Part shown: positions 36,275-45,149 of the stretch, in pieces
Layout of the letters: the number at the start of each line of letters is the position of its first letter
Position numbering within the stretch: position 1 is the stretch's first letter
From: an uncultured Actinomycetes bacterium
GTDB lineage: Bacteria > Actinomycetota > Thermoleophilia > Gaiellales > Gaiellaceae
Direction: 5' to 3'
NCBI GenBank assembly: GCA_963766725.1
Contig: CAVYBK010000001.1
Coordinates: 87,822-151,821, forward strand
Length of the DNA stretch: 64,000 nucleotides
The notes under the pieces: model-generated
What the model saw: the letters and a program-made list of their open reading frames with translations, nothing else
Database searches by the model: none
What the model was told of the DNA's origin: nothing
Position numbers and translations under genes: made by a program

Positions 36275-36579
36275 CCGCGCAACGTGGTGAGCTTGTCGAC
36301 GTCGAGCTCGACGTGCCGCCGCGAGACCGCGACGATGAGGCCGAGCCCGACGACCGCCTCCGCCGCGGCGACGACCATCACGGTCAGCGCGAAGATCTGG
36401 CCGGTGCCGGTCCCGGTCTGGCGCGCGAAGGCGATCAGGGCGAGATTCCCCGCGTTCAGCATGATCTCGAGCGCGAGGAGGACGATCAGCGGGCTGCGGC
36501 GGATGAGCACGCCGAAGGCGCCGGTGGCGAAGAGGATCACCGAGAGGATCAGGTAGGCAGCGACGCCGGGCCCGGGCAC
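36271..36579 (-). CDS. nuoK: NADH-quinone oxidoreductase subunit K
   Basis: 102 aa, 3 TM helices, LALEIMLNA..L motif. Confidence 0.95.
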   Translation of the reverse strand: MPGPGVAAYLILSVILFATGAFGVLIRRSPLIVLLALEIMLNAGNLALIAFARQTGTGTGQIFALTVMVVAAAEAVVGLGLIVAVSRRHVELDVDKLTTLRG

Positions 36580-37110
36580 TTAGGAGCGGCTTTCTCTGGG
36601 GACGGCGCTGCCGAGGATGACTCCGCCGACGGCTGCGACGAGGAGCACGATGGAGGTCACCTCGAACGCGAGCAGGTGGTCGCCGAGGAAGAGCCGGCCG
36701 ATCTCCGCCGGCGTGCCGAAGCTGTCTTCGATCTGGGCGGGAGACGAGAGCTGGTCGCCCGCCTTCAGGGCGATGACGACCACGATCTCCACCGCGATCG
36801 CCGCCGCGGCCACGATCGCGGCGAGGGACTGTGGGCTTGGCTTGCCCGCCCAGGGCGCATCCGCCCTTCCGCCGAGGTAGGCGATGACGAAGAGGAACAT
36901 CACGACGACGGCGCCGGCGTAGACGAGCACTTGCGCGGCGGCGACGAACTCGGCGGCGAGGAGCAGGTAGAGCACCGCGAGCGAGGCGAGGTTCCCGATC
37001 AGCGCGAGGGCGCTGTAGAAGGGATTCTGGAAGAGGACGACCGCGATTCCCGAGCTGAGCAGCGCGAGCGCCGCCAGCACCCAGACGACCCAGACGATGA
37101 ATTCTTCCAT
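36580..37110 (-). CDS. nuoJ: NADH-quinone oxidoreductase subunit J
   Basis: NP.YSAL.L......A..Y..L.AEF.AA.Q..VY.GA. ATG at 37110. Confidence 0.9.
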   Translation of the reverse strand: MEEFIVWVVWVLAALALLSSGIAVVLFQNPFYSALALIGNLASLAVLYLLLAAEFVAAAQVLVYAGAVVVMFLFVIAYLGGRADAPWAGKPSPQSLAAIVAAAAIAVEIVVVIALKAGDQLSSPAQIEDSFGTPAEIGRLFLGDHLLAFEVTSIVLLVAAVGGVILGSAVPRESRS

Positions 37111-37169
37111 CAGTGTCCCTTCCAGTGATGCTGCCCCGAGAAGCAGGCGTGTATTGCTGGATGGGGCAC
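37110..37169 (-). repeat. palindromic intergenic element, copy 1 (57 nt plus stop), filling the nuoI-nuoJ junction
   Basis: Shares CCAGTGATGCTGCCCCG and AGGCGTGTATTGCTGGATGGGGCA (plus-strand spelling) with 43922-44011. 13-nt terminal inverted repeats, 11/13. Confidence 0.85.
37110..37169 (-). CDS. candidate 19-codon micro-[22 protein letters not shown] (translation unproven)
   Basis: The GTG shares its G with the nuoI TAG, and the TGA shares its A with the nuoJ ATG. A paralogous ORF lies at 43922-44011. Confidence 0.35.
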   Translation of the reverse strand: MPHPAIHACFSGQHHWKGH

Positions 37170-37666
37170 TAAGAGTCCGACCTCCAGACAGGGATCGGCG
37201 TGTCGTAGAGCTCGCGGTCGGCAACGGGCACGCGCTTGACCGGCGGGGCGAGCAGCATGTCCTTCGTGTAGATGAGGTCGTCGCGCGAGTACTCGGAGAG
37301 CTCGTACTCGGCCTCGAGCGTGATCGCGTCGAACGGGCACGCGAGCTCGCAGTAGCCGCAGAAGATGCAGCGCGAGAGGTTGATCTCGTAGATGCGCGCG
37401 TAGCGCTCGCCCGGCGAGACGCGGTTGTCCGCGGTGTTCTCGTCGGCGACGACCCGGATGCAATCGGCCGGGCAGGCCGCCGCGCAGAGCGAGCAGCCCA
37501 CGCACTTCTCGAGCCCGTTCTCGTGGCGCCAGAGGCGGTGCCGTCCGCGGAAGCGCGGGTACACCGGGCGCTTGTACTCCGGGTACTGCTGCGTGATCGG
37601 CTTCTTGAAGATCTGCCGGAACGTGACTGCGAATCCCTTGAGGCTGTCGAAGGGCTGCGGGCTCAT
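37169..37666 (-). CDS. nuoI: NADH-quinone oxidoreductase subunit I
   Basis: Two 4Fe-4S motifs, [12 protein letters not shown] and [12 protein letters not shown]. Confidence 0.95.
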
Positions 37667-38658
37667 ACCAGCGCCACCAAGATGGCCGTTACAAGCGCGT
37701 TCAGGGTCGCGACGGGCAGGAGGACCTTCCAGCCGAAGCGCATGAGCTGGTCGTAGCGCAGGCGCGGCAGCGTCGCGCGCAGCCAGATGAAGGCGAAGAG
37801 GAAGGCGCCGAGCTTGAGCAGGAACCAGATCGGCCCGGGCAGCCACGGCCCGCCCCACCCGCCGAAGAAGAGCGTCACGGCGAGACCGGAGAGCGTGATC
37901 ATGTTGATGTACTCAGCCGTCGAGTAGAGGCCGAAGCGCATGCCGCTGTACTCGGTGTGGTAGCCGGCAACGAGCTCCTGCTCGGCTTCGGGGAGGTCGA
38001 AGGGCGGCCGGTTCGTCTCGGCGATTCCGGCGACGAAGAAGACGAGGAGCCCGACGAACTGCGGCGCTGCGAACCAGATCGTCGCCTGCTGCTTCTCGGC
38101 GATGTCGACGAGCGAGAGCGACTGGCCCATGATCACGACGCCGAGCACCGAGAGGGCGAGCGAAACCTCGTAGGAGACGAGCTGCGCTGCGGTGCGCATC
38201 GAGCCGAGGAGCGAGTACTTCGACTCGCTCGCCCAGCCGCCGACGAGGAAGGCGTAGATGCCGATCGCGCCGAGGGCGAAGATCAGCAGGAGGCCGATGG
38301 ACACGTTCGCGATCCAGCCGGTGACGTCGTAGTCGCCCACATGCCAGACGCCGCCGAAGGGGATGACGCTGAACGCGGCGAGCGCGGTGAAACAGGCAAC
38401 GGCGGGTGCGGCGATGTAGAGGAGGTCGATCGCGTTCGCGGGGAAAAAGCTCTCCTTGCGCAGCAGCTTCACGAGATCCGCGATGGGCTGTAGGAGCCCG
38501 AAGGGGCCTGCCCGGTTCGGCCCGTAGCGCTGCTGCATGCGGCCGAGCAGCTTGCGCTCGAGCCAGGTCGAGTAGGCAAACGCGGCCATGACGAGGTTGA
38601 TGACCACGAGCGCCTTGATGACGTCGATCCACCACGGCTGGTTCAGGCTCTGGTCCAT
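37663..38658 (-). CDS. nuoH: NADH-quinone oxidoreductase subunit H
   Basis: ERK..G.MQ.R.GPN, E.E.ELV.GY..EYSG motifs. Confidence 0.95.
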
Positions 38659-42188: not shown

Positions 42189-42651
42189 TGCGGAGCTCCT
42201 CGACGATGGCGGGGACGTCCTCGGGCTTCACCGGCTCGCGATAGCGGTGGTCTACGGAGACCACGGTGCCCCAGCCGCAGCCGCCCGCGCACTCGATCGT
42301 GCGGAGCGTGAACTCGCCGTCCTCGGTCGTCTCGCCGGCGTGGACGCCGAGCTCTCCCTCGAACGCCTCGAGCACCTGCTGCGCACCGACGAGCGCGCAC
42401 GAGATATTCGTGCAGACCTCGATCATGTGCCGGCCGACGGGCTCGAGGTGGAACATGTCGTAGAAGCTCGCGACCGCCTTGCAGTAGGCGGGCGTCAGGT
42501 CGAGCGCCTCTGCCACCTCGCGGAATGCGTCCGGCGGGAGCCAGCCGTATCGCTCCTGCGCGAGCCTGAGCGCGGGCATGACGGCCGAGAGCCGCTCGGG
42601 GTAGCGCGCGGCGATCGTCTGGATCTCGTCGTAGAGGGCCTCGGGCGCCAT
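42175..42651 (-). CDS. nuoE: NADH-quinone oxidoreductase subunit E
   Basis: 2Fe-2S ligands C.N.SC...G and ECAGGCGW. Confidence 0.9.
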   Translation of the reverse strand: MAPEALYDEIQTIAARYPERLSAVMPALRLAQERYGWLPPDAFREVAEALDLTPAYCKAVASFYDMFHLEPVGRHMIEVCTNISCALVGAQQVLEAFEGELGVHAGETTEDGEFTLRTIECAGGCGWGTVVSVDHRYREPVKPEDVPAIVEELRNGSE

Positions 42652-43922
42652 TAGCGGTCGCAGTCGCCCATGACCGTGTCGAGGGAGCCGAGGATTGCGA
42701 TGAGATCGGCCACGAGCGAGCCCGCGACGGTCGTAGCCGTCGCCTCGAGGGCGACGAAGGAGGGGGCGCGGAACTTCACGCGCCAGGGCTTCGATCCGCC
42801 GTCGGAGACGACGTAGCACCCGAGCTCGCCGCGTGCGGACTCGACGGCCACGTACACCTCGCCCGCGGGCACGCGGTAGCCCTCGGTCACGAGCTTGAAG
42901 TGGTGGATGAGGCTCTCCATGGACGTATGCAGCTCGTGGCGAGGAGGCAGGACGATCTTGCGGTCGTCCACGGTCCACGGTCCCTCGGGCATGCCGTCGA
43001 GGCATTGCTGGACGATGCGCGTCGACTCGCGCATCTCGTCCATGCGCACCTTGTAGCGGTCGTAGACGTCTCCGTTGGAATAGACCGGCACGTGGAAGTC
43101 GACCTGGTCGTAGGCGAGGTAGGGCTGCGCCTTGCGCAGGTCCCAGTCGACTCCCGATGCGCGCAGGACCGGGCCGGACTGGCCGAGCGCAATCGCGTCC
43201 TCCGCGGAGAGCAGGCCGATGCCCTTCGTCCGCTCGAGCCAGATCGCCTGCCGGTCGAGGAGCGCCTCGTACTCGTCGACGCGGCCCGGGAAGATGTCCG
43301 CGAACTTGCGGCACTCCGTGAAGAAGCCGGGCGGGATGTCCTCGGCGAGCCCGCCGGCCTGGAAGTAGCGCGTGTGCATGCGGACGCCGGTGACGAGCTC
43401 GAAGAGGTCGAGCACGGCGTCGCGCTCGCGGAAGCAGTACCAGAGGAGCGAGATCGCCCCGAGCTCGAGCGCGCCCGTGCCGAGCCAGATGAGGTGCGAG
43501 TGGATGCGCGAGAGCTCGGAGAGGAGCGTGCGCATCCAGGTCGCCTTCGGCGGCGGCTCGACCCCGAGGAGCTTCTCGATCGCGAGGACGAAGGCGAGCT
43601 CGTTGATCTGGAACGAGAGGTAGTCGATCCGCTCCGGGTACGTGATCGCCTTCCACCAGGTCTTCTGCTCCATGTTCTTCTCGAAGCCCGTGTGGAGGTA
43701 GCCGATGACGGCCTCGACGCCCTCGACCCGTTCGCCGTTCAGCTCCACGATGAGGCGGAGGACGCCGTGTGTGGAGGGATGGTTCGGCCCGAAGTTGACC
43801 TCGAGGATGTCGCCTTCCTCGCGAAGAGCCGGGTCGACCTGCAGGACCGACGGGATCGGGCTCGGGATCCTGGTGCCGGTGTAGATCGGCGCCTTCCCGC
43901 GCGCAGCCGTAGTCGTCGCCAT
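42651..43922 (-). CDS. nuoD: NADH-quinone oxidoreductase subunit D
   Basis: NFGP.HPS.HGVLR, ERIDYLS, and a C-terminal RAPSF......GS.DTVMG.CDR. ATG at 43922 (the track starts one codon earlier at a TTG). Confidence 0.95.
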   Translation of the reverse strand: MATTTAARGKAPIYTGTRIPSPIPSVLQVDPALREEGDILEVNFGPNHPSTHGVLRLIVELNGERVEGVEAVIGYLHTGFEKNMEQKTWWKAITYPERIDYLSFQINELAFVLAIEKLLGVEPPPKATWMRTLLSELSRIHSHLIWLGTGALELGAISLLWYCFRERDAVLDLFELVTGVRMHTRYFQAGGLAEDIPPGFFTECRKFADIFPGRVDEYEALLDRQAIWLERTKGIGLLSAEDAIALGQSGPVLRASGVDWDLRKAQPYLAYDQVDFHVPVYSNGDVYDRYKVRMDEMRESTRIVQQCLDGMPEGPWTVDDRKIVLPPRHELHTSMESLIHHFKLVTEGYRVPAGEVYVAVESARGELGCYVVSDGGSKPWRVKFRAPSFVALEATATTVAGSLVADLIAILGSLDTVMGDCDR

Positions 43923-44011
43923 CAATGCCCCGTCCAGTGATGCTGCCCCGCTTCTCGGTTGCGCAGTGTGATCGCGAGCGAGAAGTAGGCGTGTATTGCT
44001 GGATGGGGCAT
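43922..44011 (-). repeat. palindromic intergenic element, copy 2 (87 nt plus stop), filling the nuoC-nuoD junction
   Basis: Same element as 37110-37169 with a 30-nt internal insertion forming a nested CTTCTCG/CGAGAAG stem. Terminal inverted repeats ATGCCCCATCCAG / CTGGACGGGGCAT, 12/13. Confidence 0.85.
43922..44011 (-). CDS. candidate 29-codon micro-[32 protein letters not shown] (translation unproven)
   Basis: The ATG shares its A with the nuoC TAA, and the TGA shares its A with the nuoD ATG. The frame is conserved with copy 1 despite the 30-nt indel. Confidence 0.35.
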   Translation of the reverse strand: MPHPAIHAYFSLAITLRNREAGQHHWTGH

Positions 44012-44565
44012 TACTCGGCTCCCGAGAATCGCACCGGCTCGCCGCCGATCGGGTAGTCCTTGCGGAGGGGGTGCCCCTGCCAGTCGTCGTCCATGAGGAT
44101 CCGCTTCAGGTTCGGGTGGCCCTCGAACTCGATCCCCATGAGGTCGTACGCCTCGCGCTCGTGCCAGTCGGCGGTCGGCCAGACGGAGACCACGCTCGGA
44201 ACCGACTCTCCTTCGTCGCACCAGACCTGGAGCCGGACGCGCGGCGCCCCGCGGGCGCCGGAGACGACTGCGACGAGGTGATACGAGACCGAGAAGCGCT
44301 TCGCTTTCGGCTCGGGCTTCTTCGCGAGGCCCCAGGAGCCGGGCCGGTTGATGTCGCGCCCGCCGCGATGTCCCCAGTAGCCGGCCACGGTGCGCTCGTT
44401 CCAGCCGAGGTAGTCGGCAGCAGCGATGTCGGCGAGGAAGTTGAAGCCGCACTCGTCGCGCAGGTACTCAGATGCCTCGCGAAGCTGCGCCGTCTCGACG
44501 ACCACGGTCGTCTCGCCGCGTTCCTCGGTCACCGCTGCGAACCCCGGGACGTCGGCGAAGTTCAC
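44011..44565 (-). CDS. nuoC: NADH-quinone oxidoreductase subunit C
   Basis: [16 protein letters not shown]...R.L motif. GTG overlaps the nuoB TGA. Confidence 0.9.
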
Positions 44566-45149
44566 GATGCGACTCCGCGGATCTCGTACGCGGGCGGGAC
44601 GCCGGCGAGGATCTTCTCCTGCAGCCGGACGATGCCCTCGAGGAGCGCCTCGGGCCGGGGCGGGCAGCCCGGCACATGCACATCGACTGGCACGACCTTG
44701 TCCACGCCCTGGAGGACGGCGTAGTTCGAGAACATCCCGCCGGAGCTCGCGCAGGCGCCCATGGCGATCACCCACTTCGGCTCGAGCATCTGGTCGTAGA
44801 TCTGCCGGAGGGGTGCGGCCATCTTGTGGGAGACGCGCCCCGAGACGATCATCAGGTCGGCCTGGCGTGGCGAGGAGCGGAACACCTCTGCGCCGAAGCG
44901 CGCGACGTCGTAGCGCGCGCCGACGATCGCGATCATCTCCATCGCGCAGCAGGCGAGCCCGAACGTGTCCGGCCAGATCGAGTGCCCCTGCGCCCAGGCG
45001 ACCGCCTTCCCCACGGTCGTGAGCCCGATCTTGGACTCGAGGTCGCCGAGCTCCTGCTCGAAGACGCCGGGCCCCTTCTTGCGCATGAGGGTGCGCTCCG
45101 AATGGAGCCCGTAGTCGGCGAGGCGCTTCTTCCGTCCTACGTCCGCCAA
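44562..45149 (-). CDS. nuoB: NADH-quinone oxidoreductase subunit B
   Basis: GLACCA.EM, SPRQAD, GACA..GG, PGCPP N2-cluster motifs. Confidence 0.95.

Follow-up and report, generated by a model that had tools for sequence, protein, structure and literature searches.

A palindromic mobile repeat of the Gaiellaceae that may relay translational coupling between operon genes

Mycobacterial interspersed repetitive units (MIRUs; Supply et al. 1997, as summarised in PMC12548453 and PMC3184786) are short mobile intergenic repeats of actinobacterial operons that carry a small open reading frame (ORF) overlapping the flanking stop and start codons. On insertion at a start codon their internal ORF is coupled to the gene, and the consequences for expression are thereby probably kept small (PMC12548453); the overlap of MIRU ORFs with adjacent genes has also been noted elsewhere (PMC3184786). 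Here we analyse a stretch of 64,000 nucleotides (nt) from an uncultured bacterium of the Gaiellaceae (contig CAVYBK010000001.1), referred to below as the window, in which two related inverted-repeat elements lie on the minus strand within the nuo operon, copy 1 between nuoI and nuoJ and copy 2 between nuoC and nuoD. Our analysis reveals that both are shortened forms of a non-autonomous, almost fully palindromic mobile repeat of the Gaiellaceae (Thermoleophilia, Actinomycetota) that resembles a MITE (a miniature transposable element with inverted repeats). The comparative patterns also make it rather probable that this repeat acts as a translational-coupling relay inside operons.

The Gaiellaceae element is nevertheless set apart from the MIRUs by its description. 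MIRUs belong to Mycobacterium and are units of 40-100 bp, often in tandem direct repeats, whose inverted repeats are only imperfect and whose filled sites show tetranucleotide direct repeats, whereas the Gaiellaceae element is a single near-perfect palindrome of 162 nt with TA or CTAG flanks, and no tandem copies were seen among those examined. Because it is a single palindromic unit with no tandem direct repeat, the element appears to work like a MIRU but is none. The Rickettsia palindromic elements (PMC10969869) are likewise mobile palindromes of ~150 bp, whose length and open frame permit them to persist in translated sequence; they form in-frame fusions within genes, however, while the Gaiellaceae element is intergenic and has its own start and stop. 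Engineered bicistronic-design couplers (PMC12548453) are alike in that a short leader ORF ends on the target start, delivers ribosomes and removes inhibitory structure, but these are synthetic and neither mobile nor palindromic. Repetitive extragenic palindromes and bacterial interspersed mosaic elements (REP/BIME) resemble the element as GC-rich hairpins found at the 3' ends of genes and in operons and as targets of IS110-family elements, one of which is described below, but they measure 20-40 nt, lack an end-to-end ORF and are linked to REP-associated tyrosine transposases, in contrast to the 162 nt, nested helices and TA flanks seen here. The Correia elements of Neisseria (also called Neisseria miniature insertion sequences, NEMIS) are ~100-160 bp long, have terminal inverted repeats and TA ends, and are co-transcribed into RNA that folds into a long hairpin. 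Correia and other IS630-type MITEs thus match the Gaiellaceae element in size, inverted repeats and TA ends and differ from it in taxa and in the bridging ORF; to our knowledge, Correia elements have not been reported with an end-to-end ORF that bridges the neighbouring genes. Nothing specific came up in our literature search for a Gaiellales repeat or a translationally coupled MITE. We found no earlier description of this palindromic family; the coupling logic itself has already been proposed for MIRUs.

To collect the family, exact-word scans with an 18-nt query from the left arm were run on one genome per species and then on the JGI metagenomes. This sampling gave about 46 distinct insertion loci, a modest count in which the independence of loci was judged from their flanks, and all true matches come from Gaiellaceae, from metagenome-assembled genomes (MAGs) of uncultured Actinomycetes or Actinomycetota, and from soil-type metagenome contigs. 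These loci uphold the proposal of an earlier sequence-only reading of the window that a repeated inverted-repeat element is present there. Within the window, the 20-nt element core occurs twice, as against 0 occurrences in 100 shuffles, and neither nhmmer nor blastn detected further copies. Nearly all the matches are longer than the window copies and measure 162 nt, exactly 54 codons, with the parent sequence GTGCCCCATCCAGCAATACACGCC...GGGCAGCAT[CT]ACTGGA[AC]GGGGCAC. Copies range from 42 to 225 nt with the mode at 162 nt, and they contain no transposase gene, the 54-codon frame being their sole ORF. Small size without a transposase gene, terminal inverted repeats, and dispersed copies that are present or absent at one and the same site, three of the features by which MITEs are recognised, were found.

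The reading frame of the element runs from its first GTG (ATG at three loci) through all 54 codons and ends on a TAG, TGA or TAA directly after the last CAC, except that at two loci it is one codon longer and runs into a GTGA or ATGA overlap. At 22 loci it overlaps its neighbours on both sides, as TAGTG or TAATG on the left and as TGATG, TAGTG or TAATG on the right, and it is out of frame with the next gene and fused to neither neighbour. To examine how this frame fares, loci were classed by their surroundings only, using ORF length and GC content at third codon positions (GC3) on both strands. A locus was called coupled when the stop of the element ORF is overlapped or directly followed by the start of the next gene (21 sense loci and one antisense locus, L078), the others being loci between convergent genes or with the next start 4-26 nt away; a copy was called intact if it has a GTG or ATG start, a length that is a multiple of three and no internal stop. 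The ORF is intact at 22/22 coupled loci and at 13/21 of the others (p=0.0014, Fisher). With the 87-nt and 57-nt forms counted once each, length changes are multiples of three in 5/5 events at coupled loci (p=0.004, binomial, coupled set) and in 2/7 elsewhere, and positions 2-3 of the start codon have changed at 0/22 coupled loci versus 4/21 others (p=0.048). Thus, the ORF is intact at all coupled junctions and decays elsewhere, and the earlier suspicion, drawn from the two window copies, that a preserved frame with stop/start overlaps exceeds chance is borne out by the contrast between 22/22 intact and 8/21 broken copies.

The eight broken copies have failed in different ways. Some have lost the start codon (GCG in L012a/L081, of 165 and 163 nt; CTG in L084; GTA in L101), one has an in-frame TGA (L050), three measure 161 nt through three different 1-nt deletions (L067, L069 and L082), and one is reduced to 47 nt (L091). 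At coupled junctions the variant lengths are 87, 57, 78, 42 and 225 nt, and elsewhere they are 161 (three times), 165/163, 47 and 48 nt. The sequence-only reading had proposed that copies with preserved stems but with internal stops or with indels not divisible by three would speak for an RNA element only; such copies do exist (161, 163 and 47 nt, and one with an internal stop), but none of them is at a coupled junction. Coupled copies differ from their subfamily consensus at 10-30 positions and the other copies at 6-21, so that the coupled copies are not simply younger. Among full-length copies, stops occur in the sense frame of 1/33, a copy between convergent genes, and in the antisense frame of 15/33, at four different sites, while the single mutations able to create a stop number 11-18 in the sense and 16-21 in the antisense frame. 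Absence of stops was also tried as a coding test by itself and rejected, having too little power at 70% GC, and the antisense frame was used as the control instead. Between co-directional genes, 28 copies lie in the sense and 4 in the antisense orientation (p=2e-5), although the search was strand-neutral. Three antisense copies with an open antisense frame (L078, L015 and L032) agree with the earlier suggestion that the inverted repeats offer a start in either orientation.

At the level of RNA, the full-length element is predicted to fold as a whole into a single nested hairpin with an energy of -85 to -97 kcal/mol. RNAalifold on 35 distinct 162-nt copies gave 39 consensus pairs, 24 of them changed on both sides; 93.8% of the cells are paired, against 36-42% with slid partners, and 0/500 shuffles match the observed covariation. 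A clear case is the helix 3 pair at columns 33/132, where G-C has become C-G in 11/35 copies. Judged from this covariation, the hairpin is maintained through compensatory changes. Three subfamilies carry unrelated apical hairpins (CCAAGGC...GCCTTGG, CCGGTAAT...ATTACCGG and CCAATAGC...GCTATTGG) with equal total length, and the length of 162 nt is held across all three and in the divergent relative L012b. Neither the window copies nor the full-length ones of L036, L021 and L109 gave a relevant Rfam match at E<=1.

Copy 2 of the window is an internally deleted element of 87 nt (ATGCCCC...GGGGCAT, 43925..44011, minus strand) that can be aligned at both of its ends with the 162-nt family. Its minus strand at 43922..44011 reads ATG CCC CAT ... 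GGG CAT TGA, an end-to-end ORF of 29 codons plus TGA. The A at 44011 is common to the ATG of this ORF and the TAA of nuoC (TAATG), and the A at 43922 is common to its TGA and the ATG of nuoD (TGATG). The upstream gene nuoC is recognised by its Complex1_30kDa domain match (listed ORF 44011..44775, minus; TAA at 44011..44013), its true start probably lying further downstream than the listed one, and nuoD by its Complex1_49kDa match (42651..43922, minus), with its ATG at 43920..43922 placed by the predicted fold of copy 2 at the foot of the element hairpin. Copy 1 (GTGCCCC...GGGACAC, 37113..37169, minus) measures 57 nt and is, by alignment and comparison with relatives, the 87-nt form minus 30 nt. 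Its ORF of 19 codons plus TGA (37110..37169, minus) begins with a GTG that shares its G with the TAG of nuoI and ends in a TGA that overlaps the ATG of nuoJ (TGATG). Here nuoI is identified by a ferredoxin-type 4Fe-4S domain match and by homologues (37169..37858, minus; TAG at 37169..37171), and nuoJ by an Oxidored_q3 match (36580..37110, minus; ATG at 37108..37110). Outside the 30-nt block at 43949..43978 (minus), 5/57 positions differ between the two copies. The terminal repeats of copy 2 pair at 12/13 positions, and in its predicted fold (-47.3 kcal/mol, z = -4.6) CTTCTCG pairs with CGAGAAG. The former is the 5' arm of the inner stem (43979..43985, minus; helix 3 of the family structure by predicted fold and covariation) and the latter its predicted 3' arm (43951..43957, minus). 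The 57-nt copy 1 has a predicted fold of -25.7 kcal/mol (z = -2.3). Consensus scans found no promoter-like or terminator-like sites at either window copy. In all this the sequence-only reading proved correct to the base, from the quoted sequence and the TAATG and TGATG overlaps to the comparison with copy 1, and its five differences in the common 57 nt, its 12/13 terminal repeats and its 7-bp inner stem were all found again.

One claim of that reading has to be reversed, namely that copy 2 carries a 10-codon insertion. The 30 nt present in copy 2 and absent from copy 1 (CTCGCGATCACACTGCGC...CGAGAAGCG) correspond to helix 4 (left arm) and helix 3 (right arm), and alignment to full-length copies shows them to be retained left-arm and inner-stem sequence of the 162-nt parent (CGCGATCAC...), lost from copy 1. 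The nuoI/nuoJ junction provides a series of states for comparison. It is empty in L036 (TCG TAG TG GGC) and L118 (TCG TAG GTG), and it holds a 162-nt copy in L109, whose NuoI is 87% identical to that of the window, an 87-nt copy in L073, whose NuoI is 99.6% identical, and, in the window as in L060 and L097, a copy of 57 nt. Because of this series and the alignment to the parent, we read the difference as a loss: copy 1 has lost 30 nt and copy 2 has gained nothing. The 87-nt form is also found in L060, L102, L104 and L073, with a related deletion in L089, and the 57-nt form also at nuoJ/nuoK in L021. Such recurrence at several junctions (nuoC/nuoD, nuoI/nuoJ and L089 for the longer form, nuoI/nuoJ and nuoJ/nuoK in L021 for the shorter) could mean that the short forms spread as units or that they originated repeatedly.

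Across the Gaiellaceae, element copies occupy five nuo junctions, C/D, H/I, I/J, J/K and L/M, as seen at L036:3166-3331, L021:2564-2729 and 295-351, L109:2245-2410 and the two sites in the window. Four related nuo operons reached via NuoI homologues (L115-L118) have no element copy, and in copy-free operons nuoC and nuoD meet at ordinary tight junctions (ATGA, TAA+6+ATG, or GCCGAG TAG CG ATG GCG). Several of the long-read contigs involved (L115-L117, ENA ERZ250395xx/ERZ250396xx) carry frameshifted genes. Several NuoI homologues listed with 199-284 amino acids (aa) in L115-L117 are fusions or fragments made by such frameshifts with no real extensions, and length-based arguments from these assemblies call for care. 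At the nuoJ/nuoK junction, the window reads TCC TAA GTGCCCGGGCCCGGC (36575-36590, minus), and its nuoK start, GTGCCC, equals the first six bases of the element, while L021 has a 57-nt copy there followed by ATGGACGGGCCCGGC. The GTGCCC at the window nuoK start may be the remnant of a near-total element deletion, or a coincidence.

The ends and flanks of the element suggest how it reached such sites. The terminal inverted repeats are GTGCCCCATCCAG / CTGGA[AC]GGGGCAC, with ends of the type GTGCCCCATCC..., and helix 1, which the ends form, is 97.9% paired in the 35 copies. On the left side, 39/46 loci have TA and 27/46 have CTA; on the right side, 32/46 have TA, 9/46 TG and 25/46 TAG, so that the commonest layout, with the element in brackets, is C-TA[G...C]TA-G. 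The TA together with the first G of the element makes the TAG stop of a co-directional upstream gene (GC3 ~0.9), and the one empty/filled pair at one junction reads TAGTG when empty and TA[GTG...CAC]TAGTG when filled. These flanks fit a TA duplication inside (C)TAG of the kind made by IS630/Tc1-mariner elements, or alternatively a TA that is part of the element. IS630/Tc1-mariner elements duplicate TA, and IS630 prefers CTAG. At five loci between convergent genes (L066, L067, L072, L082 and L110), both genes stop exactly at TAGs made by the element ends. Either the two genes shared a CTAG that was the target, or both stops now come from the element.

We propose the following course of events as the reading that we favour. 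Insertion would take place at the TA of a stop codon that reads (C)TAG and would duplicate this TA in the manner of IS630/Tc1-mariner elements. On reaching the TA-G stop of the upstream gene, a ribosome would then re-initiate at the overlapping GTG, translate through the element and melt its hairpin, which would free the right arm with a candidate Shine-Dalgarno (SD)-like GGAAGGGG 5 nt before the next start. At the stop overlapping the next start codon the ribosome would finally terminate and initiate anew, and translational coupling in operons such as nuo would thereby survive the insertion. The peptide would be a by-product, and selection would act on the start codon, the frame and its openness, which would account for the finding that every deletion in the nuo operon, from 162 to 87 and on to 57 nt, has a length divisible by three. 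If a copy were not translated, the next start would stay buried in the stem, and this would explain why frame-breaking changes are missing only at coupling-dependent genes. To a fuller picture we give even chances: a stop-codon-seeking, translationally transparent element whose ends rebuild TAG and give GTG, whose 54-codon frame unzips the hairpin, whose right arm is SD-like, which could serve in either orientation in principle, and which is under purifying selection only where coupling matters. If the relay is real, this would be the first statistically supported MITE kept as a translational-coupling relay and a natural coupler of translation able to read through a hairpin of great strength, and it would lend context-dependent support to an idea put forward for MIRUs in 1997 on few examples. 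The element occupies the tightest sites of essential operons, at five nuo junctions, and would leave them unbroken because it mimics the stop/start overlap that it interrupts.

Several points weigh against the relay. Comparative patterns are the sole source for translation of the element ORF, and initiation at the foot of a -90 kcal/mol hairpin appears demanding. The ORF has a flat GC profile by codon position, 0.69/0.62/0.67 versus 0.68/0.47/0.92 in flanking genes, and keeps the rare codon ATA, so that efficient translation is not evident. At 70% GC the consensus has few stops in any of its three sense frames, and openness of the frame alone is therefore weak evidence. Gene contexts come from the heuristic of ORF length and GC3, the counts are small, and locus independence rests on flanks. 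Some loci are from long-read assemblies with evident frameshift errors, whereas the non-3n copies used in the tests, those with lengths not divisible by three, are from JGI metagenome contigs (Ga... accessions). As for the target site, the TG right flank at 9 loci means that a TA duplication needs a later change of TAA or TAG to TGA, or that the ends are to be defined otherwise; at nuoI/nuoJ, for instance, the right end is CAC TAGTG GAG GAT in L109 versus CAC TGATG GAA GAA in the window. No autonomous transposase partner turned up, both collection scans having been aimed at the element core only.

Some of these points would be expected if the element were a purely structural or selfish palindromic MITE, or a REP-like hairpin, in which the ORF is incidental, 162 nt is divisible by three merely by accident, and the intact starts and deletions by multiples of three reflect luck or common ancestry. 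The general scarcity of stops, the flat GC profile and the unconserved interior of the peptide all suit this explanation, as does the recurrence of the 87- and 57-nt forms at several loci, which leaves fewer independent deletions than copies. We nevertheless regard it as unlikely. Under such a view it is hard to see why integrity should depend on context (22/22 versus 13/21, p=0.0014), why length changes should keep the frame in 5/5 coupled events but in 2/7 elsewhere, or why positions 2-3 of the start codon should be changed at 0/22 coupled and 4/21 other loci, when the coupled copies show no less divergence than the others, 15/33 copies have stops in the antisense frame, and orientation is biased 28:4. 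A cis-acting regulatory RNA hairpin, serving as an RNase III site, an mRNA stabiliser or an expression-ratio device with the ORF as a side effect, is compatible with a relay, and proposals of such roles exist for Correia and REP elements. The hairpin has a very high stability and is backed by covariation, sense-strand G-U pairs outnumber A-C mismatches ~2:1, the sense orientation is strongly preferred, and the downstream start lies at the stem foot. As the only role, however, it appears improbable to us, for it leaves unexplained why lengths divisible by three, kept GTG or ATG starts and stop-start overlaps are limited to coupled junctions, the 57-nt copy 1 has lost most of the hairpin yet keeps its frame, and Rfam holds no match.

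That the ORF encodes a functional small protein of 19-54 aa conserved for its sequence, a possibility raised in weaker form by the sequence-only reading, we consider very improbable. The terminal residues are indeed conserved (VPHPAIHA..., ...GQHHWKGH), and a few database entries call the peptide a hypothetical protein. But the conservation at the ends falls on the terminal inverted repeats, and the interior is unconserved, its residues varying freely in step with the covariation of the stem and differing wholly between subfamilies. The element tolerates lengths of 14, 16, 19, 26, 29, 54 and 75 codons, its codon usage shows no bias, and neither the 54-aa nor the 29-aa peptide has a Pfam match. 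A protein database search with the peptide returned only 8 hypothetical proteins in 5.8 billion clusters, too few to widen the set of copies. The element ORF is thus not an ordinary gene, and in annotation such frames should be labelled repeat-borne relay ORFs instead of hypothetical proteins, and differences in length between copies should be ascribed to deletions from a parent of 162 nt. Finally, an assembly artefact, which the sequence-only reading had allowed for, or a chance similarity can practically be dismissed. The window copies, 6.8 kb apart, recur in independent metagenome contigs (L060, L102, L104, L097 and L073), the family occurs in many MAGs, and neither copy is an artefact because L060 has both of them with spacing identical to that in the window.

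Further copies and relatives illustrate the range of the family. L076:4279-4507 contains the 225-nt copy, whose hairpin is extended in its right half by 63 nt (21 codons), and this copy ends TAAATG before the next gene. The relative L012b (L012:2669-2834) is only ~60% identical, still 162 nt long and open, and ends CAC TGATG. In L002b (L002:6168-6275) the core CGCGATCACGC...GGTGCTCGC is held in common while the ends differ (GCGACCTTCGG.../...CCAAGGTCAC TAG), which hints at a wider superfamily whose core is better conserved than its terminal repeats. In L094:837-2263 (minus), an element copy is split by an insertion of ~1.26 kb that codes for a DEDD/IS110-family transposase (PF01548, E=1.4e-19) with a C-terminus that looks frameshifted. 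This IS110-family element, the only insertion sequence encountered, sits inside an element copy and is no parent of the repeat. IS110-family elements target palindromic repeats, and the Gaiellaceae repeat may itself be a target of IS110-family insertion.

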